Shown: positions 16,586 to 21,385, numbered from the stretch's first letter. The stretch is 64,000 nt of DNA from Alphaproteobacteria bacterium (GCA_018063245.1 JAGPBS010000001.1:8-64007), one strand, 5' to 3'. Program-made: numbers and translations. Notes: generated from the sequence alone by a model not told the origin.

Positions 16586-18271
16586 ATGTTTAGAACGCCA
16601 TCATTACAGATCACCCATCCTGGATTCCCTTTTCAGATCCCGCAAGTTTCAACTCAGCCAAACATTCAAAGCAGCTGCGCCTTTTTGAGTGATGAAAAAT
16701 ATAAATCTGTTATTAGGGCGACACTAGAGGACGAGGTGTATTTGATTAATGGGTTTTTTGATTTTAATGAGGCGAGTCTAACAGCTTCATCTTCTGTTGT
16801 TTGGCGGATTGATTTGCCTTTGATGAATCAAGATATATTGTTAGCCTATGCAATTGCAAAGGGTTTTTGGAGCGAAGAGAGGGATCAAAAAATATATCCT
16901 CATGATTTTATAACGATTTGTCAGTTCATACAATCACTTCCGCCTGAACACAAATCATTTGACTTTATTTTCATGCAATGCCCATTTTTTCAGAGCTTCA
17001 AAGAAAGAGAGCTTACAATTTTTAATGAGCGGCAGATAGAAGTAAAGCAACGATATGATCAAGATTATAATCATGCGATGGGAGTAGTGTCATTTAATTT
17101 GCTCACATTTCTGTGCTTTTTTCCACAAGTCACGCCTGAACCTGAAGGGAGAGAGTCTTATCATCTTGATGTCTTGGAATATACGAAAATATTAGAAGAA
17201 CTTCGGGCTGTGGCCATGAGCTCAGATAAAAATATGTCAGATAGCGATCTTTTGAAGTGTGAGCGATTGTTTCAATTAAGGGCTTTGCACCTATCAGATC
17301 CATTGAATATTTTTGAAACTTTGAAAGAGTCTTATGCTGCAGCTAAAAGCATGGAGAAGGATTTGGTGCCTCGATATTATGTTCCGTTTGAATCACAGAA
17401 AGAAGTTGCTTCTGCTGCCTATTTAGAGGTTGTCGCAGAATTATCAACACCTTTTTGTCCTGCAAGACTTGTTGAACAGCATCAGCCAAGAGCCGCTCTT
17501 GAATCAAGTGATGATTTAACTTTGACGATGAGTTTTGGGCTGCCGGTGAGTCAAGAGCTTTTGGATAAACAGCTCGCAATGAAGCTCTCTGATGAAGAGC
17601 ATCAAAAAGAAGCTGACACCCTGGAACAACTTCGAAAAGATGAAGAGGTTGCAAGAGCTCTGCAGCAAGAATTTGATCAGGAGCCCCCAATTGATAATAT
17701 GAGGTTGTTCAGGCCCTTAATCAATGTTATTAAAACAGTTTTTTTCAAAGAGCCTGAGGATGTTTCATTGTTGAAGACTTACAGTGGTGAGAAACTGAGC
17801 GCATTCATAGATTTTGTTTTGTCAGATAAGTCTTATCTTGAAGATCAGGAGGGCGATGTTCTGAATATAAAAGGATATGAGGCTTCATTGTTGCAGTTAA
17901 AATCTTATTATTCAGCAGCAGCTTTTGTACCTGAAATTTTAGGACATTTAACAAAAGCACAAGTCATGACAATCTTTCGTTTAAGCGAATCAAATCGGTC
18001 TGCAGAGTATAAAATGAGAAAGCTTTTTGCGGAATGGAATCAGGGAGATGAAAAATTACCTGATTTCTTAAGGGAGATTTTGCATTCTATAGATGGGTAT
18101 ATCGTTTATGCAAGGGATGAAGATTTGGCCAATGTGATTGCAGAATTGTTTAACGTCCTTTCATTTGCCCACGTTAAGAATCTACCAAATGTGGTTGCGG
18201 AGAGAGACAAGCCTCATTCAGTGCTTTATTATTTGATTCGCATTGCAGCCCTTCAATCTATCTTTGAGTAA
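16586..18271 (+). CDS. large hypothetical protein (~561 aa), candidate host-interaction effector
   Basis: Strong RBS GAGGAGGAGA precedes the ATG at 16586 (the ORF track starts at 16550). No bacterial housekeeping motifs. Contains an acidic stretch KDEEVARALQQEFDQE with weak UIM-like character. Confidence 0.5.
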   Translation: MFRTPSLQITHPGFPFQIPQVSTQPNIQSSCAFLSDEKYKSVIRATLEDEVYLINGFFDFNEASLTASSSVVWRIDLPLMNQDILLAYAIAKGFWSEERDQKIYPHDFITICQFIQSLPPEHKSFDFIFMQCPFFQSFKERELTIFNERQIEVKQRYDQDYNHAMGVVSFNLLTFLCFFPQVTPEPEGRESYHLDVLEYTKILEELRAVAMSSDKNMSDSDLLKCERLFQLRALHLSDPLNIFETLKESYAAAKSMEKDLVPRYYVPFESQKEVASAAYLEVVAELSTPFCPARLVEQHQPRAALESSDDLTLTMSFGLPVSQELLDKQLAMKLSDEEHQKEADTLEQLRKDEEVARALQQEFDQEPPIDNMRLFRPLINVIKTVFFKEPEDVSLLKTYSGEKLSAFIDFVLSDKSYLEDQEGDVLNIKGYEASLLQLKSYYSAAAFVPEILGHLTKAQVMTIFRLSESNRSAEYKMRKLFAEWNQGDEKLPDFLREILHSIDGYIVYARDEDLANVIAELFNVLSFAHVKNLPNVVAERDKPHSVLYYLIRIAALQSIFE

Positions 18272-18354
18272 AAAACATAGACAAAAAGACGTTATTTGAT
18301 TAGATTTATTTGTTATCTGTCAATGGTTATGTTTCTTCAAGGGGTTGTAAGGTT

Positions 18355-19644
18355 ATGAAAAAAAGATTTTTTTTATCAGGATTCGTTTGTCTGATTCTTG
18401 CTGTTGGTTTTTGGGGATATAACCATTTTTTTAAATCGACAAATGCACGTCTTTCTACAAGTGATACTTTTGCTGCAAAGCGCGTTATGTTTATAGCGCA
18501 TAGCCTGTCTGTAGGTGGTAAAGGTATTTTTCCAATATATCAAAAAATGAAAGAACAAGGGCATGATGTAAAAATTGTGGCTATTCCTAATTATGGTTAC
18601 GGAAAGTTAGTCGAGAACATAGATTTACCCTTTTTTGCTCAGTTTGATCAGGCAGACGTCATTTATCCTTGCGGAAAAGAAGAGCCTTACAAAAAATGTG
18701 AGAGCTTAGATTCTTATAAGCCGGACTATATTTTCAGTCAGAATCCTTTTAATATTGATGGTTGGGTAAATTCGGTTCTTGATCCATTTTTATTGCGTAC
18801 GCATCTTAAGACAATGACGCCACATCTGTCTTACATTGTTTATGGTCCTCATCTTTTTCATCAAGTGGCATCGAACCATAAACGATTATCTAAAGATGTT
18901 GATCTCGTATTTGTTGACTCAGAGAGTACAAAAAAAATCTATATTGAGGAATATGGTTTTGATGCAGAGCGCGTCATTGTTTCAGGATATCAATCTTATA
19001 AAGACACAAAAGAAGCCGTAAAAGGACAAAAGCCAAGTGGACATAAAGAAACAATTTTGTGGATGCCACGTTGGGCTTTGTTTACGTATCATAAAGAAAA
19101 GTTTGAAGGGGGATCAACTTTTCTGAACTATCATTTCTTCTTTTATAACTATGCAAAGACCCATCCTGAGATCAATTTTATTATTCGTCCACATATGCTT
19201 TTGAAATCTTATGCAGTTGAGGGGCAATTTATGAGCCAGGAAGATTTGGACTGGATCTTGAATAGGTTTAAATCTCTTCCAAATGTTCGGTGGTCAGAGC
19301 ATGAGACGTCGTCTTTGATTGATGATATCATTGAGTCAGATATTGTGGTGAGTGACGGAACTTCGGCTTTAGCAGAAGTTGTTGTGGCAGATCGGCCTAT
19401 TATTTATTTAAGCAATGGCTGGGACACTGAATTTAACAGTAATGATTTAGGACGTGAGTTTAAGGACTATCTCTATTTTGCTCACAAGGCAGAGCATATC
19501 TTGCGGCATCTTGAAACAATTCGCAAATCTGATTACCTTCCGTATAAAAAAGATAAGCTAAAAAAGCGTGAGGCTTTTAAGAAGAAGCTTGATCCGGTTG
19601 AAGATCCTGCTGCTTATATTACGGATTATGTATCTAAGCATTGA
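18355..19644 (+). CDS. TagB/TagF-family CDP-glycerol (polyol-phosphate) glycerophosphotransferase-like protein with N-terminal TM anchor
   Basis: C-terminal motifs KETILWMPRW (cf. ILYAPTWR), IIRPHMLL (cf. KxHP), and SDIVVSDGTSALAEVVVADRPIIYL (cf. ITDYSS...kPiif). N-terminal TM FFLSGFVCLILAVGFWGY. ATG at 18355 (the ORF-track TTG start is at 18310). Confidence 0.5.
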   Translation: MKKRFFLSGFVCLILAVGFWGYNHFFKSTNARLSTSDTFAAKRVMFIAHSLSVGGKGIFPIYQKMKEQGHDVKIVAIPNYGYGKLVENIDLPFFAQFDQADVIYPCGKEEPYKKCESLDSYKPDYIFSQNPFNIDGWVNSVLDPFLLRTHLKTMTPHLSYIVYGPHLFHQVASNHKRLSKDVDLVFVDSESTKKIYIEEYGFDAERVIVSGYQSYKDTKEAVKGQKPSGHKETILWMPRWALFTYHKEKFEGGSTFLNYHFFFYNYAKTHPEINFIIRPHMLLKSYAVEGQFMSQEDLDWILNRFKSLPNVRWSEHETSSLIDDIIESDIVVSDGTSALAEVVVADRPIIYLSNGWDTEFNSNDLGREFKDYLYFAHKAEHILRHLETIRKSDYLPYKKDKLKKREAFKKKLDPVEDPAAYITDYVSKH

Positions 19645-20198: not shown

Positions 20199-20236
20199 TT
20201 CTTAGTTATAGATTTGATTTTTAATGGAGAGAAGTA

Positions 20237-21385
20237 ATGATGAATGTACAGGGCATTTCAGGCCTATCAGATGTGGTGCTGCCAGATGACCCCATGGATC
20301 TGTATGAGCTGTCTCAGCAAAGACGCACTGAGGCAGGAGATCAAGTTGCAATTGATGCACTGGATTTATCTGAAAGAGCCGCGCAGCCATACGATGAGCG
20401 TGGATTTTTTCTGAACTTGCCAGAGGTTTGCTTGATTCATTTGATGGCTTATTTGATCGTGCCAAGTTTTAGAAATCTTTCTGAAACATCAAAGGAGAGC
20501 TGTCAGAAATTGAAGGCAATTTTCATGCCGAAAGATCAATGGATTAATAACTTGACACCACTGAGTATTGGTAAGAGATTTATCTTGGAAAGTCTGGAGC
20601 GAAGTCAAAAGGAGCTAGAAGAGAGGCTCCAAATATTTGATCAGGCTCGAATTTTTACGAATGATATTATGGCTGCTGTAGAAATGTCCAGAGGTGGGAT
20701 TAGGCAGGGTCTCTCTTATGGCGTTTTTGAGGGGAGTTTCTATCGCTTTTCTCTTCATTTGCTTTCAATGATAAAGGCATTTGAGGATTATAACCGAACA
20801 GCGCCACAGAATAAGAAGCTGACGCTTAAGGGGATGTTTGACCACTATGCTAAAGACAGACAATCGATTTTGGAAACTGTCGAGAAAGGGGCTGACTATG
20901 TCGATCAGATGAGCTTTAGTGGGATCGTTGTTCCGCTTGAATTTGCGAAACTTCAGAGCTTGCCAAAACTTTGGTTTCTCATAGCCAATGGACCATATCT
21001 ATTTCAAAGCCTTCTTTTTACTTTTGTGCATCTGAAAGAATTGAATTTAGAAGGGGAGATTTACGAGCTGTTGCCTGACATCAAAAATCTAAAACAACTC
21101 GAAGTGCTTGATGTTAGAGATAAATTGGAATCATTGCCCTCTGAAATAGGCGAGCTTTCGAGTTTGAGAGAATTGTACTTAATGGATAATAAAAGTCTAG
21201 CCACATTACCTGACTCAATCATTCAATTGAAACTTAAGGTGCTTGATATTACGGCGTCGGGCATTCAATTTTTAAATCTCTCAAACCAAATGTGCCTGTG
21301 GATTAAAGGGATTGCAGATTTCAAAGGCTACACTCCTGTTGTTAGATTCTCGCCTCGTTATCCTCGAGATTTGGATGATATCTAG
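20237..21385 (+). CDS. F-box-like + leucine-rich-repeat protein (eukaryote-like, putative effector)
   Basis: LNLPEVCLIHLMAYLIVPSFRNLSETSKESCQKL resembles the F-box consensus LPdEllleIfsyLd...l..vcKrW. C-terminal LRRs: LKELNLEGEIYELLPDIKNLKQLEVLDVRDKLESLPSEIGELSSLRELYLMDNKSLATLPDSI. RBS GGAGAGAAG. Confidence 0.55.
   Translation: MMNVQGISGLSDVVLPDDPMDLYELSQQRRTEAGDQVAIDALDLSERAAQPYDERGFFLNLPEVCLIHLMAYLIVPSFRNLSETSKESCQKLKAIFMPKDQWINNLTPLSIGKRFILESLERSQKELEERLQIFDQARIFTNDIMAAVEMSRGGIRQGLSYGVFEGSFYRFSLHLLSMIKAFEDYNRTAPQNKKLTLKGMFDHYAKDRQSILETVEKGADYVDQMSFSGIVVPLEFAKLQSLPKLWFLIANGPYLFQSLLFTFVHLKELNLEGEIYELLPDIKNLKQLEVLDVRDKLESLPSEIGELSSLRELYLMDNKSLATLPDSIIQLKLKVLDITASGIQFLNLSNQMCLWIKGIADFKGYTPVVRFSPRYPRDLDDI

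Follow-up and report, generated by a model that had tools for sequence, protein, structure and literature searches.

In E. coli, the rfb region together with gnd constitutes a hypervariable antigen locus whose flanks hitch-hike. The F-box eukaryote-like proteins of bacteria include the GALA proteins of Ralstonia and the F-box effectors of Legionella. Mimicry has been described in Legionella (PMC7542358), and the NEX1a family of Neochlamydia combines an F-box-like N-terminus, a conserved linker and C-terminal LRRs (PMC4209131). REP and MITE elements, for their part, are targets of the IS110 family (PMC1525189, PMC12288879, PMC11208160). The locus described here recalls each of these systems, as well as the CDP-polyol phosphotransferases TagF, TarL and Bcs3 (PF04464; PDB 3l7i, 8va1 and 8a0c), and differs from each of them.

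The locus lies between ampG and ruvAB in the window, that is, the whole stretch of 64,000 nucleotides that was analysed. ORF calling in the window places four + strand genes at this junction: A (16586..18271), an orphan of 561 aa; B (18355..19644), a TagF/TarL-like putative polyol-phosphate transferase with a GT-B fold; C (19697..20143), an ElaA-like GNAT N-acetyltransferase identified with Pfam and NCBIfam; and D (20237..21385), a protein of 382 aa with LRRs and an F-box-like motif. An earlier note on this DNA had listed these four genes, all of which are present, but the interval between ampG and A also holds a fifth ORF on the minus strand (15885-16457). The same note interpreted the group as a horizontally acquired, non-housekeeping islet of effector type. 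The non-housekeeping, accessory-like character is borne out by the restriction of A to one genus, by the presence or absence of B among conspecific strains and by the hypervariable and mosaic nature of D; the foreign origin, and the effector-type role of C, are not. We lean, by a modest degree, towards the view that the ampG/ruvA junction carries a native, lineage-specific accessory segment, a recombination-prone hypervariable locus rather than a freshly imported island. In the best reading, its proteins look like host- or envelope-interface proteins. If this is true, the locus marks the fastest-changed genes of the source organism and provides candidates for its host interface; if it is wrong, the segment is a mere recombination patch with orphan genes. 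The source is an uncultured, probably host-associated alphaproteobacterium, possibly living with protists; we infer this lifestyle, as well as the functions proposed below for A and D. Among the GTDB representatives retrieved, the nearest have a RuvB only 71-75% identical. A chemoreceptor gene in a conspecific genome and respiratory-chain genes in both genomes indicate an organism without extreme reduction.

The window was compared with this conspecific JGI genome (2.08 Mb). The flanks are nearly identical, with 99.8-100% nt identity for mutY, cc274, ampG and orf190 on one side and 99.9-100% for tolQRA on the other. Identity is 96.1% nt in A (dS 0.12), 92.8% in C (dS 0.33) and 64.6% in D (55% at the aa level, dS 1.07), and amounts to 95.6% and 92.6% in ruvA and ruvB. 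Per-gene nt identity, dS and 150-nt sliding identity delimit a zone of raised, patchy within-species divergence centred on D (16850..23800), where synonymous divergence is maximal (16.85-23.8 kb) and identity varies in blocks from 81 to 100%. Hitch-hiking synonymous divergence is carried by C, ruvA, ruvB and ybgC. The rates of A, B and D exceed those of the neighbouring genes several-fold, but selection on them is still purifying: dN/dS is 0.17-0.21 in A, 0.13 in B and 0.31-0.35 in D, versus 0.03-0.09 in housekeeping genes, all values being below 1, with dS saturated in the distant comparisons. This sharp rise in both synonymous and non-synonymous divergence amid near-identical genomes, its patchy spill into housekeeping neighbours and the variable gene content are comparable to rfb/gnd; the target here, however, is a cytoplasmic-type LRR protein and an orphan protein, and not a polysaccharide gene cluster. 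The divergence peak could result from one or a few imports instead of long-term selection. If the preferred reading holds, the locus offers a compact natural experiment, in which LRR alleles only 55% identical, and a TagF-like gene either present or absent, are set in identical backgrounds.

D starts with a variable acidic N-tail, followed by the F-box-like motif (residues 58-95, nt 20408-20521), a conserved helical middle domain (residues ~100-200) and 4-5 SHOC2-type LRRs (residues ~232-350, nt 20930-21286). The LRRs, which are tandem LxxLxLxxNxLxxLP units of the SHOC2/LIC 'typical' class, match LRR_14 in Pfam (E 5e-9), and the family profile of D matches SHOC2 and Leptospira LIC11098 over residues 232-350 (E 1e-41). 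The description of D as an F-box-like LRR protein thus holds for its LRRs, but the F-box stays sub-threshold: PF00646 gives 13.1 bits (E 0.095, cutoff 20.5), the model matches three of five D homologues with a best E of 0.0055, and the N-domain profile retrieved no F-box protein from PDB sequences at E<=10. Using hhalign with four F-box references (SKP2, beta-TrCP, FBXW7 and cyclin F), 32 columns of the N-domain were aligned in register (probability 31%, P 5e-4). The layout of D parallels that of the chlamydial NEX1a family (PMC4209131): an LP-x-E...SK motif, tentatively in register with F-box helices 1-2, precedes a conserved region and the C-terminal LRRs, as in F-box and LRR proteins, and copies diverge rapidly. 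The spacer of ~140 aa between motif and LRRs distinguishes D from F-box and LRR systems. Unlike NEX1a-type proteins, D has a sub-threshold F-box match, shows no homology found outside the LRRs and is present as one syntenic copy whose alleles diverge, as opposed to forming an expanded paralogue family.

The alleles of D are mosaic, the identity matrices of the N-domain and of the LRRs being incongruent. The window allele and that of L013 share 82% identity in the N-domain and 42% in the LRRs, while the corresponding values with L012 are 58% and 74%. This module-level mosaicism is seen in at least five alleles, and one strain carries a tandem duplicate. D may be a modular adaptor. The partner bound by its LRR face would vary and would most plausibly be a host protein, which the conserved N-terminal region, a possible mimic of an F-box, would link to machinery that stays the same. 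Old alleles would then be kept, and the N-terminal and LRR modules reshuffled, by diversifying or balancing selection for recognition of the partner, acting together with homologous recombination between lineages.

The ATG start of A is supported by the Shine-Dalgarno sequence GAGGAGGAG and by the conserved N-termini of its homologues. The protein is all-helical by prediction, without signal peptide, and contains a central acidic helix (residues ~323-364). Its supposed lack of a recognisable bacterial domain agrees with the absence of any match in Pfam, NCBIfam, PADLOC, PHROG or PDB sequences, and the AF2 model, with a pLDDT of 42, is unusable. The UIM-like acidic stretch reported in the earlier note is a resemblance by eye only: the 60-aa segment, taken from three homologues, gave no match to the Pfam UIM model at E<=10, and the Ser of motif 1 reads S/S/A/D across four sequences, with Glu replacing Ser in motif 2. 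Homologues of A form only three clusters among 5.8 billion proteins. Beyond these clusters, 1.84 billion representatives searched exhaustively with a profile yielded only one fragment and P0117, a protein of 1104 aa from another alphaproteobacterium, in which the C-terminal ~170-aa module of A recurs at 937-1102 (E 8e-19) and 693-826. A can be regarded as a fast-evolving non-Sec protein and a candidate translocated protein.

The assignment of B to the TagB/TagF family is upheld by its fold, which has two domains, is GT-B-like and most resembles TagF, TarL and Bcs3, and by its C-domain substrate-binding motifs, but not by its PF04464 score (E 4.9e-4, 19.6 bits), which is under the curated cutoff of 22.1. 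The family profile nevertheless matches TarL (E 4e-4), and distant homologues of 22-27% identity carry PF04464; taken together, these results make B, judging from its sequence, a remote PF04464 subfamily and no standard member. P238-R239-W240, R278-P279-H280 and SD(G)TS..E..KPII show no or almost no variation in 62 sequences, PF04464-annotated ones included. The corresponding PRW, RPH and SDxxS..E..KP motifs are common to PF04464 proteins, and the SD..S..E..KP block was aligned to TarL 459-494. In the endosymbiont clade, YGPH166xFH169 follows a beta-strand where distant PF04464 relatives have no His, as seen in an alignment and not by residue-level superposition; this GPHxFH motif is only a putative counterpart of the catalytic His of the reference enzymes (TagF H444 / TarL H300, according to PDB entry titles).

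B differs from TagF, TarL and Bcs3 by an identity of only 12-18% and by its stand-alone position, outside any teichoic-acid or capsule cluster. These canonical enzymes act at the cytoplasmic face, whereas the N-terminus of B is predicted to be a signal-anchor or signal peptide. A hydrophobic N-terminal segment was scored in 48 of 62 aligned family members, all of them among the 52 close homologues (0/10 distant PF04464 relatives). These signal-peptide-like, lipobox-like or signal-anchor-like termini argue for export, and B is apparently exported, by the sole measure of N-terminal hydrophobicity. The named sources of its homologues are almost all intracellular Alphaproteobacteria (Ca. Tisiphia, Rickettsia, Rickettsiaceae, Holospora and Ca. 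Bealeia, plus one MAG labelled Janthinobacterium). If the preferred reading holds, a TagF-like subfamily not described before, apparently exported and common to Rickettsia, Tisiphia and Holospora, comes to light, with a directly testable substrate. The gene is part of a 1.4-kb indel polymorphism (18283..19682), absent from the JGI genome, L010, L001 and L002; in blastn, the alignment of the window to the JGI genome ends at 18282 and restarts at 19683. As an exported TagF-like phosphotransferase, B would decorate an envelope polymer and create a strain-variable surface trait.

On these grounds, one could propose that phages or predators, and not a host, have shaped a locus for variation of the envelope or surface, with diversifying selection as at O-antigen or capsule loci and with B, the minus-strand orf170 and perhaps D altering the cell surface. 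B is located near ampG and one of its homologues sits between rodA and pbp2-mreDCB, orf170 is fast-evolving with a signal peptide, and the pattern resembles the hitch-hiking of flanks at gnd/rfb. This explanation is nevertheless unlikely. The strongest divergence falls on D, which has neither a signal peptide nor a membrane segment; A also lacks a signal peptide, and no other glycan-synthesis gene was found in the segment with Pfam and NCBIfam. PADLOC gave no match, and the only PHROG match outside those of GNAT acetyltransferases links the LRR region of D to one family of unknown function.

The preferred reading of a native segment is supported by composition and synteny. Relative to 60 window ORFs, all four genes are in the normal range for GC (z -0.1 to -1.8), GC3 (z -1.3 to +1.0) and codon-usage distance (z -0.6 to +1.0), within +/-1.8 SD. 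Congeners with ~88-96% identity in housekeeping proteins (~84% at the nt level) have A, C and D in this very position, and the three genes are present in all relatives with sequence there; presence varies only for B. Since composition matches the window and the genes keep their position, a recent foreign acquisition is unsupported. The GNAT assignment of C is confirmed by Acetyltransf_10 (E 1e-15, 58.1 bits, cutoff 23.6), and the protein aligns end to end with the E. coli ElaA-type model PRK10314 of NCBIfam (1-148 vs 1-150 of 153; E 4e-26). Because its 91.7 bits are below the equivalog cutoff of 171, C is ElaA-like and no equivalog. With 82-97% aa identity in relatives and a dN/dS of 0.06-0.08, it behaves like a core gene: C is a conserved, slowly evolving passenger, an ordinary ElaA-type acetyltransferase.

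The earlier idea of a recent islet, four genes arriving as one HGT block of host-interaction effectors, is consequently quite improbable, the more so as no tRNA occurs in the window, no integrase domain in the segment (Pfam, NCBIfam) and no direct repeat at the indel junctions of B. It would account for the surroundings of ruvAB in 80 more distant Alphaproteobacteria, none of which has ampG or an islet gene there, for the lack of B in conspecific strains and the scattering of its homologues over Rickettsiales and Holosporales in unrelated contexts, and for the MITE copy inside the cluster, with an IS110 element there in one strain. If any gene was gained or lost separately, the candidate is B alone.

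This MITE-like copy, correctly noticed as a palindrome, has a perfect 20-bp stem (20157..20200; arms 20157-20178 and 20179-20200), its arms being 95% complementary with no match in 100 shuffles. Twelve TIR matches versus 0.42 expected define a family of five full copies plus this collapsed one, and copies are present in relatives too. The family is dispersed, with terminal inverted repeats and GC hairpins like REP/MITE elements, but it has no Rfam entry, and the copy in the cluster is collapsed to its outer repeats and one hairpin. Its site is a synteny breakpoint in the conspecific JGI genome (IS110 insertion and inversion) and coincides with contig breaks in short-read assemblies; a full-length copy (48412..48531) is the second breakpoint of this 28-kb inversion. 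Two IS110 copies of the same genome are inserted in two MITE copies at the identical position GAGTGA^CG.

A bolder joint reading of the three fast genes is very doubtful: B as a new class of exported TagF-like phosphotransferases, D as an SCF-mimicking F-box/LRR adaptor and A as a new family of translocated proteins. The B class may then be largely confined to intracellular Alphaproteobacteria (Rickettsiaceae, Holosporaceae and the window's lineage), may act outside the cytoplasm on host-derived CDP-activated alcohols reaching the periplasm, and may decorate peptidoglycan or outer-membrane components, while D may be kept as ancient, recombining alleles following variable host targets. Finally, ordinary lineage-specific genes under relaxed constraint, with no special function and a peak left as neutral by-product of 1-2 homologous-recombination imports from a sister species, would suit the dN/dS values below 1, the patchy blocks in ruvA, ruvB and ybgC and the lack of assigned function for A and D, but are highly improbable given that A, B and D also lead in rate between species, where whole contigs diverged, that D shows module mosaicism and duplication, and that its LRRs are no more alike within the species (40% identity) than between species (46%).

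The minus-strand ORF upstream of A encodes a secreted acidic protein with ENPSGLE repeats. Its 170-aa form (15885..16397), which is the one in JGI and NCBI gene calls, starts with the Sec-type signal peptide MKKSLFLFLTATTFFSTAQNLFA and has no family match in Pfam, NCBIfam, PADLOC or PHROG. It shares 69-75% aa identity with its congeners, where ampG and mutY reach 88-90%, and with a dN/dS of 0.11 it is the leftmost fast-evolving gene in the between-species comparison. Further eukaryote-like repeat proteins are encoded elsewhere in the window.

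The region between ampG (14565-15884; AmpG family TIGR00901, E 7e-139), on the left, and ruvA-ruvB-ybgC-tolQRA, on the right, is a native, position-stable and hypervariable accessory segment, whose products we infer to face something variable outside the cell. Its four plus-strand genes were recovered as ORFs exactly as an earlier note had listed them from ampG to the ruvAB-tol cluster: A (16586-18271, 561 aa), B (18355-19644, 429 aa), C (19697-20143, 148 aa) and D (20237-21385, 382 aa). The product of an extra minus-strand gene between ampG and A (15885-16457, probably 15885-16397) is secreted and acidic, and contains ENPSGLE repeats. 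The source genome is a MAG named just 'Alphaproteobacteria bacterium' (locus tags KBF71_00085 onward), and an identical arrangement with 99.7% nucleotide identity to the window is found in a second MAG, GCA_018060745.1 (L009), which excludes an assembly artefact as the source of the gene order. The scan for promoters and terminators returned promoter-like sites at chance level, and the palindrome between C and D as the sole hairpin standing out. A defence island or a prophage was also considered and rejected, with 0 PADLOC hits and with PHROG matches for only C (acetyltransferase families) and the LRR region of D (one family of unknown function). Elsewhere in the window, positions 13416-14240 (+) encode a lipoprotein-like protein (lipobox LMSAC, long Q/E/R-rich coiled-coil) lacking a family hit and conserved between species at 75-85% identity, against about 90% for its neighbors; ORFs at 216-1730 (-), 40563-41288 (-) and 60934-61875 (+) are among further ones of 140-500 aa lacking a Pfam match (E<=1e-5).

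The variability of the segment can be observed by comparison with a conspecific genome, a single JGI contig of 2,075,286 bp (loci L004 and L008). The genes mutY, cc274, ampG and orf190 are 99.8-100% identical at the nucleotide level (dS 0-0.004), as are tolQ, tolR and tolA at 99.9-100% (dS 0-0.006). Between these blocks, identity is 96.1% for A (dS 0.12), 92.8% for C (dS 0.33), 64.6% for D (55% at the amino acid level; dS 1.07), 95.6% for ruvA (dS 0.19) and 92.6% for ruvB (dS 0.30), and B is absent from the JGI genome. In 150-nt bins, the divergence begins at about 16850, inside A, and stops at about 23800; it is patchy in ruvA, ruvB and ybgC, with blocks of 81-100% identity. Such a pattern presumably marks a focal gene around which homologous exchange with diverged donors has recurred. 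Confidence in the hypervariability of the segment is high. A hypervariable locus with hitch-hiking flanks is of a known kind, as are all the components of this one (a eukaryote-like LRR protein, a TagF-like enzyme, a GNAT and a MITE); a new point is how very deeply the D alleles have diverged against a background that is otherwise identical. The D alleles are mosaic: in the N-domain, the window goes with the L013 allele (82%) and with the JGI genome (74%), and in the LRRs with that of L012 (74%), L013 going there with JGI (58%). LRR identity falls to 40% inside the species, no higher than between species (46%). In L012, two D genes are found in tandem, the second beginning 33 nt past the first (L012 1395-1532).

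Gene D contains four to five 'typical' LRRs at residues ~232-350, and its family profile matches SHOC2 and Leptospira LIC proteins at E 1e-41. Of the F-box/LRR protein proposed in the earlier note, the LRRs are thus secure, but the F-box stays sub-threshold by three routes. The F-box model reaches E 0.095 at residues 58-89 (3/5 homologues, best E 0.0055), profile-profile alignment with four F-box sequences places LP-x-E...SK in register at a probability of only 31%, and there is no F-box protein among the PDB matches of the N-domain profile. The F-box-like character of D therefore remains a lead. Its N-terminal 230 residues gave no significant match, and the window contains no paralog of this domain. 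The layout of D, with an N-terminal F-box-like motif, a conserved linker and C-terminal LRRs, parallels that of the Neochlamydia NEX1a family (PMC4209131). Gene C is a GNAT, as previously called, and matches the E. coli ElaA model from end to end, with a score under the equivalog cutoff.

Gene B had been described as a TagB/TagF-family transferase. Taken alone, it falls slightly short of the PF04464 threshold (E 5e-4) and gives weak GT4 matches. Its AF2 model is confident (pLDDT 90.6, 62-sequence alignment), and Foldseek ranked TarL and TagF first with this model; the family profile matches the TarL sequence at E 4e-4 over the SD..S..E..KP block, which is invariant in the 62-sequence alignment together with PRW and RPH. 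The description thus holds for the superfamily, within which B falls into a subfamily of its own. Its homologs, about 80 proteins at 36-68% identity, are unannotated save for source names, which are Ca. Tisiphia (two hosts), a Rickettsia endosymbiont, a Rickettsiaceae MAG, Holospora curviuscula, Ca. Bealeia paramacronuclearis and one MAG labelled Janthinobacterium; PF04464-annotated proteins form the tail of the set, at 22-27% identity. An N-terminal hydrophobic segment (Sec signal peptide-, lipobox- or signal-anchor-like) is present in 48 of the 52 close members and in none of 10 distant PF04464 relatives. In the NCBI annotation (MBP9876718.1, 365 aa), the first 64 residues are missing (window 18355-18549); since the homologs back the 429-aa form, with its hydrophobic N-terminus and first conserved strand, this start is placed too far downstream. 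B represents a new, apparently exported TagF-like subfamily, whose named members belong almost all to intracellular bacteria. A literature search on glycerophosphotransferase in Rickettsia found nothing relevant.

A second mark of the subfamily is that the gene stands alone in unrelated housekeeping contexts, such as talB/tlc in Tisiphia or a pyrH-tsf-rpsB neighbor in another MAG lineage. One of the homologs, 54% identical, is located in a further MAG lineage between rodA and pbp2-mreD-mreC-mreB (L097 6514-11217), a setting which hints at a peptidoglycan-related role. A rival reading, which we consider unlikely, takes the segment for a locus of envelope variation under the pressure of phages or predators. 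Pointing circumstantially to a host are the SHOC2-type LRRs of D, the distribution of B homologs over their named sources, and the abundance of MITEs and IS elements in the 2.08-Mb genome. Counted against a host are a chemoreceptor in the conspecific genome, respiratory-chain genes in both genomes, and the fact that no secretion system was seen. On balance, we lean towards a recombination-driven segment at the host/envelope interface, within which a host-interaction function has about an even chance. The window also contains, as a further circumstantial host pointer, three eukaryote-like repeat proteins on the minus strand, one RI-type LRR_6 protein (E 5e-45) and two Sel1-repeat proteins (36448-37761, 54576-55763 and 58784-60658).

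Gene A has no match in Pfam, NCBIfam, PADLOC, PHROGs or PDB sequences, in agreement with the absence of a recognisable bacterial domain reported before. Among 5.8 billion proteins, a word-indexed search yielded three clusters of homologs (94, 62 and 57% identity), to which an exhaustive profile search over 1.84 billion representative sequences adds no more than a 95-aa fragment and the C-terminal part of P0117, a 1104-aa protein adjoining ccm genes on a different alphaproteobacterial contig (L014 5799-9113). Scans of the metagenome and GTDB collections found no member, and the window no paralog. The C-terminal module of A (last ~170 residues) occurs at least twice in P0117, at 937-1102 (E 8e-19) and 693-826; A is a new orphan family with a repeatable C-terminal module. 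In P0117, which lacks a Pfam domain, the module copies are set apart by Pro/Asn-rich linkers. A has no signal peptide, and its AF2 model (4-sequence alignment) is all-helical and unreliable (pLDDT 42), and was for this reason not used for fold search. The 'UIM-like' stretch once noticed in A, LDKQLAMKLSDEE; DEEVARALQQEFDQE, was a resemblance by eye and had to be abandoned: no UIM model of Pfam matches at E<=10, and in the homolog alignment the diagnostic Ser is S/S/A/D at motif 1 and Glu at motif 2.

Horizontal acquisition, also proposed initially, is not supported by composition. Relative to 60 ORFs of the window, the four genes have GC z-scores of -1.1, -1.8, -0.6 and -0.1, GC3 z-scores of -1.3 to +1.0 and synonymous-codon distance z-scores of -0.6 to +1.0; there is no tRNA within the window and no integrase within the segment, which is not foreign by composition. 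The order mutY-cc-ampG-orf-A-C-[element]-D-ruvA, with B absent, recurs in a congener (SRR17234816; two contigs joined by a 20-nt overlap inside the palindromic element), and the L003 strain has the order A-B-C. On the other side, the cluster is not found in free-living relatives: of 80 Alphaproteobacteria drawn from GTDB by their RuvB (<=75% identity), none carries ampG or a segment gene within 10 kb of ruvAB, and these distant genomes offer no 'empty' version of the site. A true imported islet is somewhat more doubtful still than a locus driven by phages or predators. Between species, A, B and D are again the fast genes: dN/dS is 0.31 for D, 0.17-0.21 for A and 0.13 for B, against 0.03-0.09 for housekeeping genes; since it stays below 1 in all three, A, B and D are functional genes. 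Neutral import patches, to which the patchy blocks of ruvA, ruvB and ybgC could be attributed, are very improbable.

The collapsed palindromic element that the earlier note placed inside the cluster is indeed a collapsed copy, at 20157-20200, of a MITE-like family of 110-150 bp. This family, which has no Rfam entry, is characterized by the terminal repeat CGTCAYTCAGAG, two GC hairpins whose stems vary between copies with complementarity kept (co-varying), and inner GTGGARTCTC boxes. Five full copies are present in the window (5534-5656, 10742-10864, 14256-14408, 48412-48531 and 63072-63193), a density of about one copy per 10 kb, and short-read contigs of relatives break off inside the element. 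The JGI genome (3300056850 Ga0558718_00008) contains two IS110-family copies (L004 8389-9960 and L008 14372-15950), inserted at the same position, GAGTGA^CG, of two MITE ends; the targeting of REP-type palindromes by IS110-family elements is established (PMC1525189, PMC12288879, PMC11208160). These ends are homologous to the window at 20.2 kb and 48.4 kb, two sites free of IS110 there, and their outer flanks are exchanged, which shows a 28-kb inversion by IS-IS recombination. Because of this inversion, itself independent of the divergence of D, D no longer adjoins C in the JGI strain. In the L012 strain, no palindromic element separates the GNAT and LRR genes; in other strains this intergenic region carries a second, unrelated repeat family (L013 73-357, ~280 bp; L003 4070-4205), of which a 79%-identical copy is found elsewhere in the window (55923-56094).
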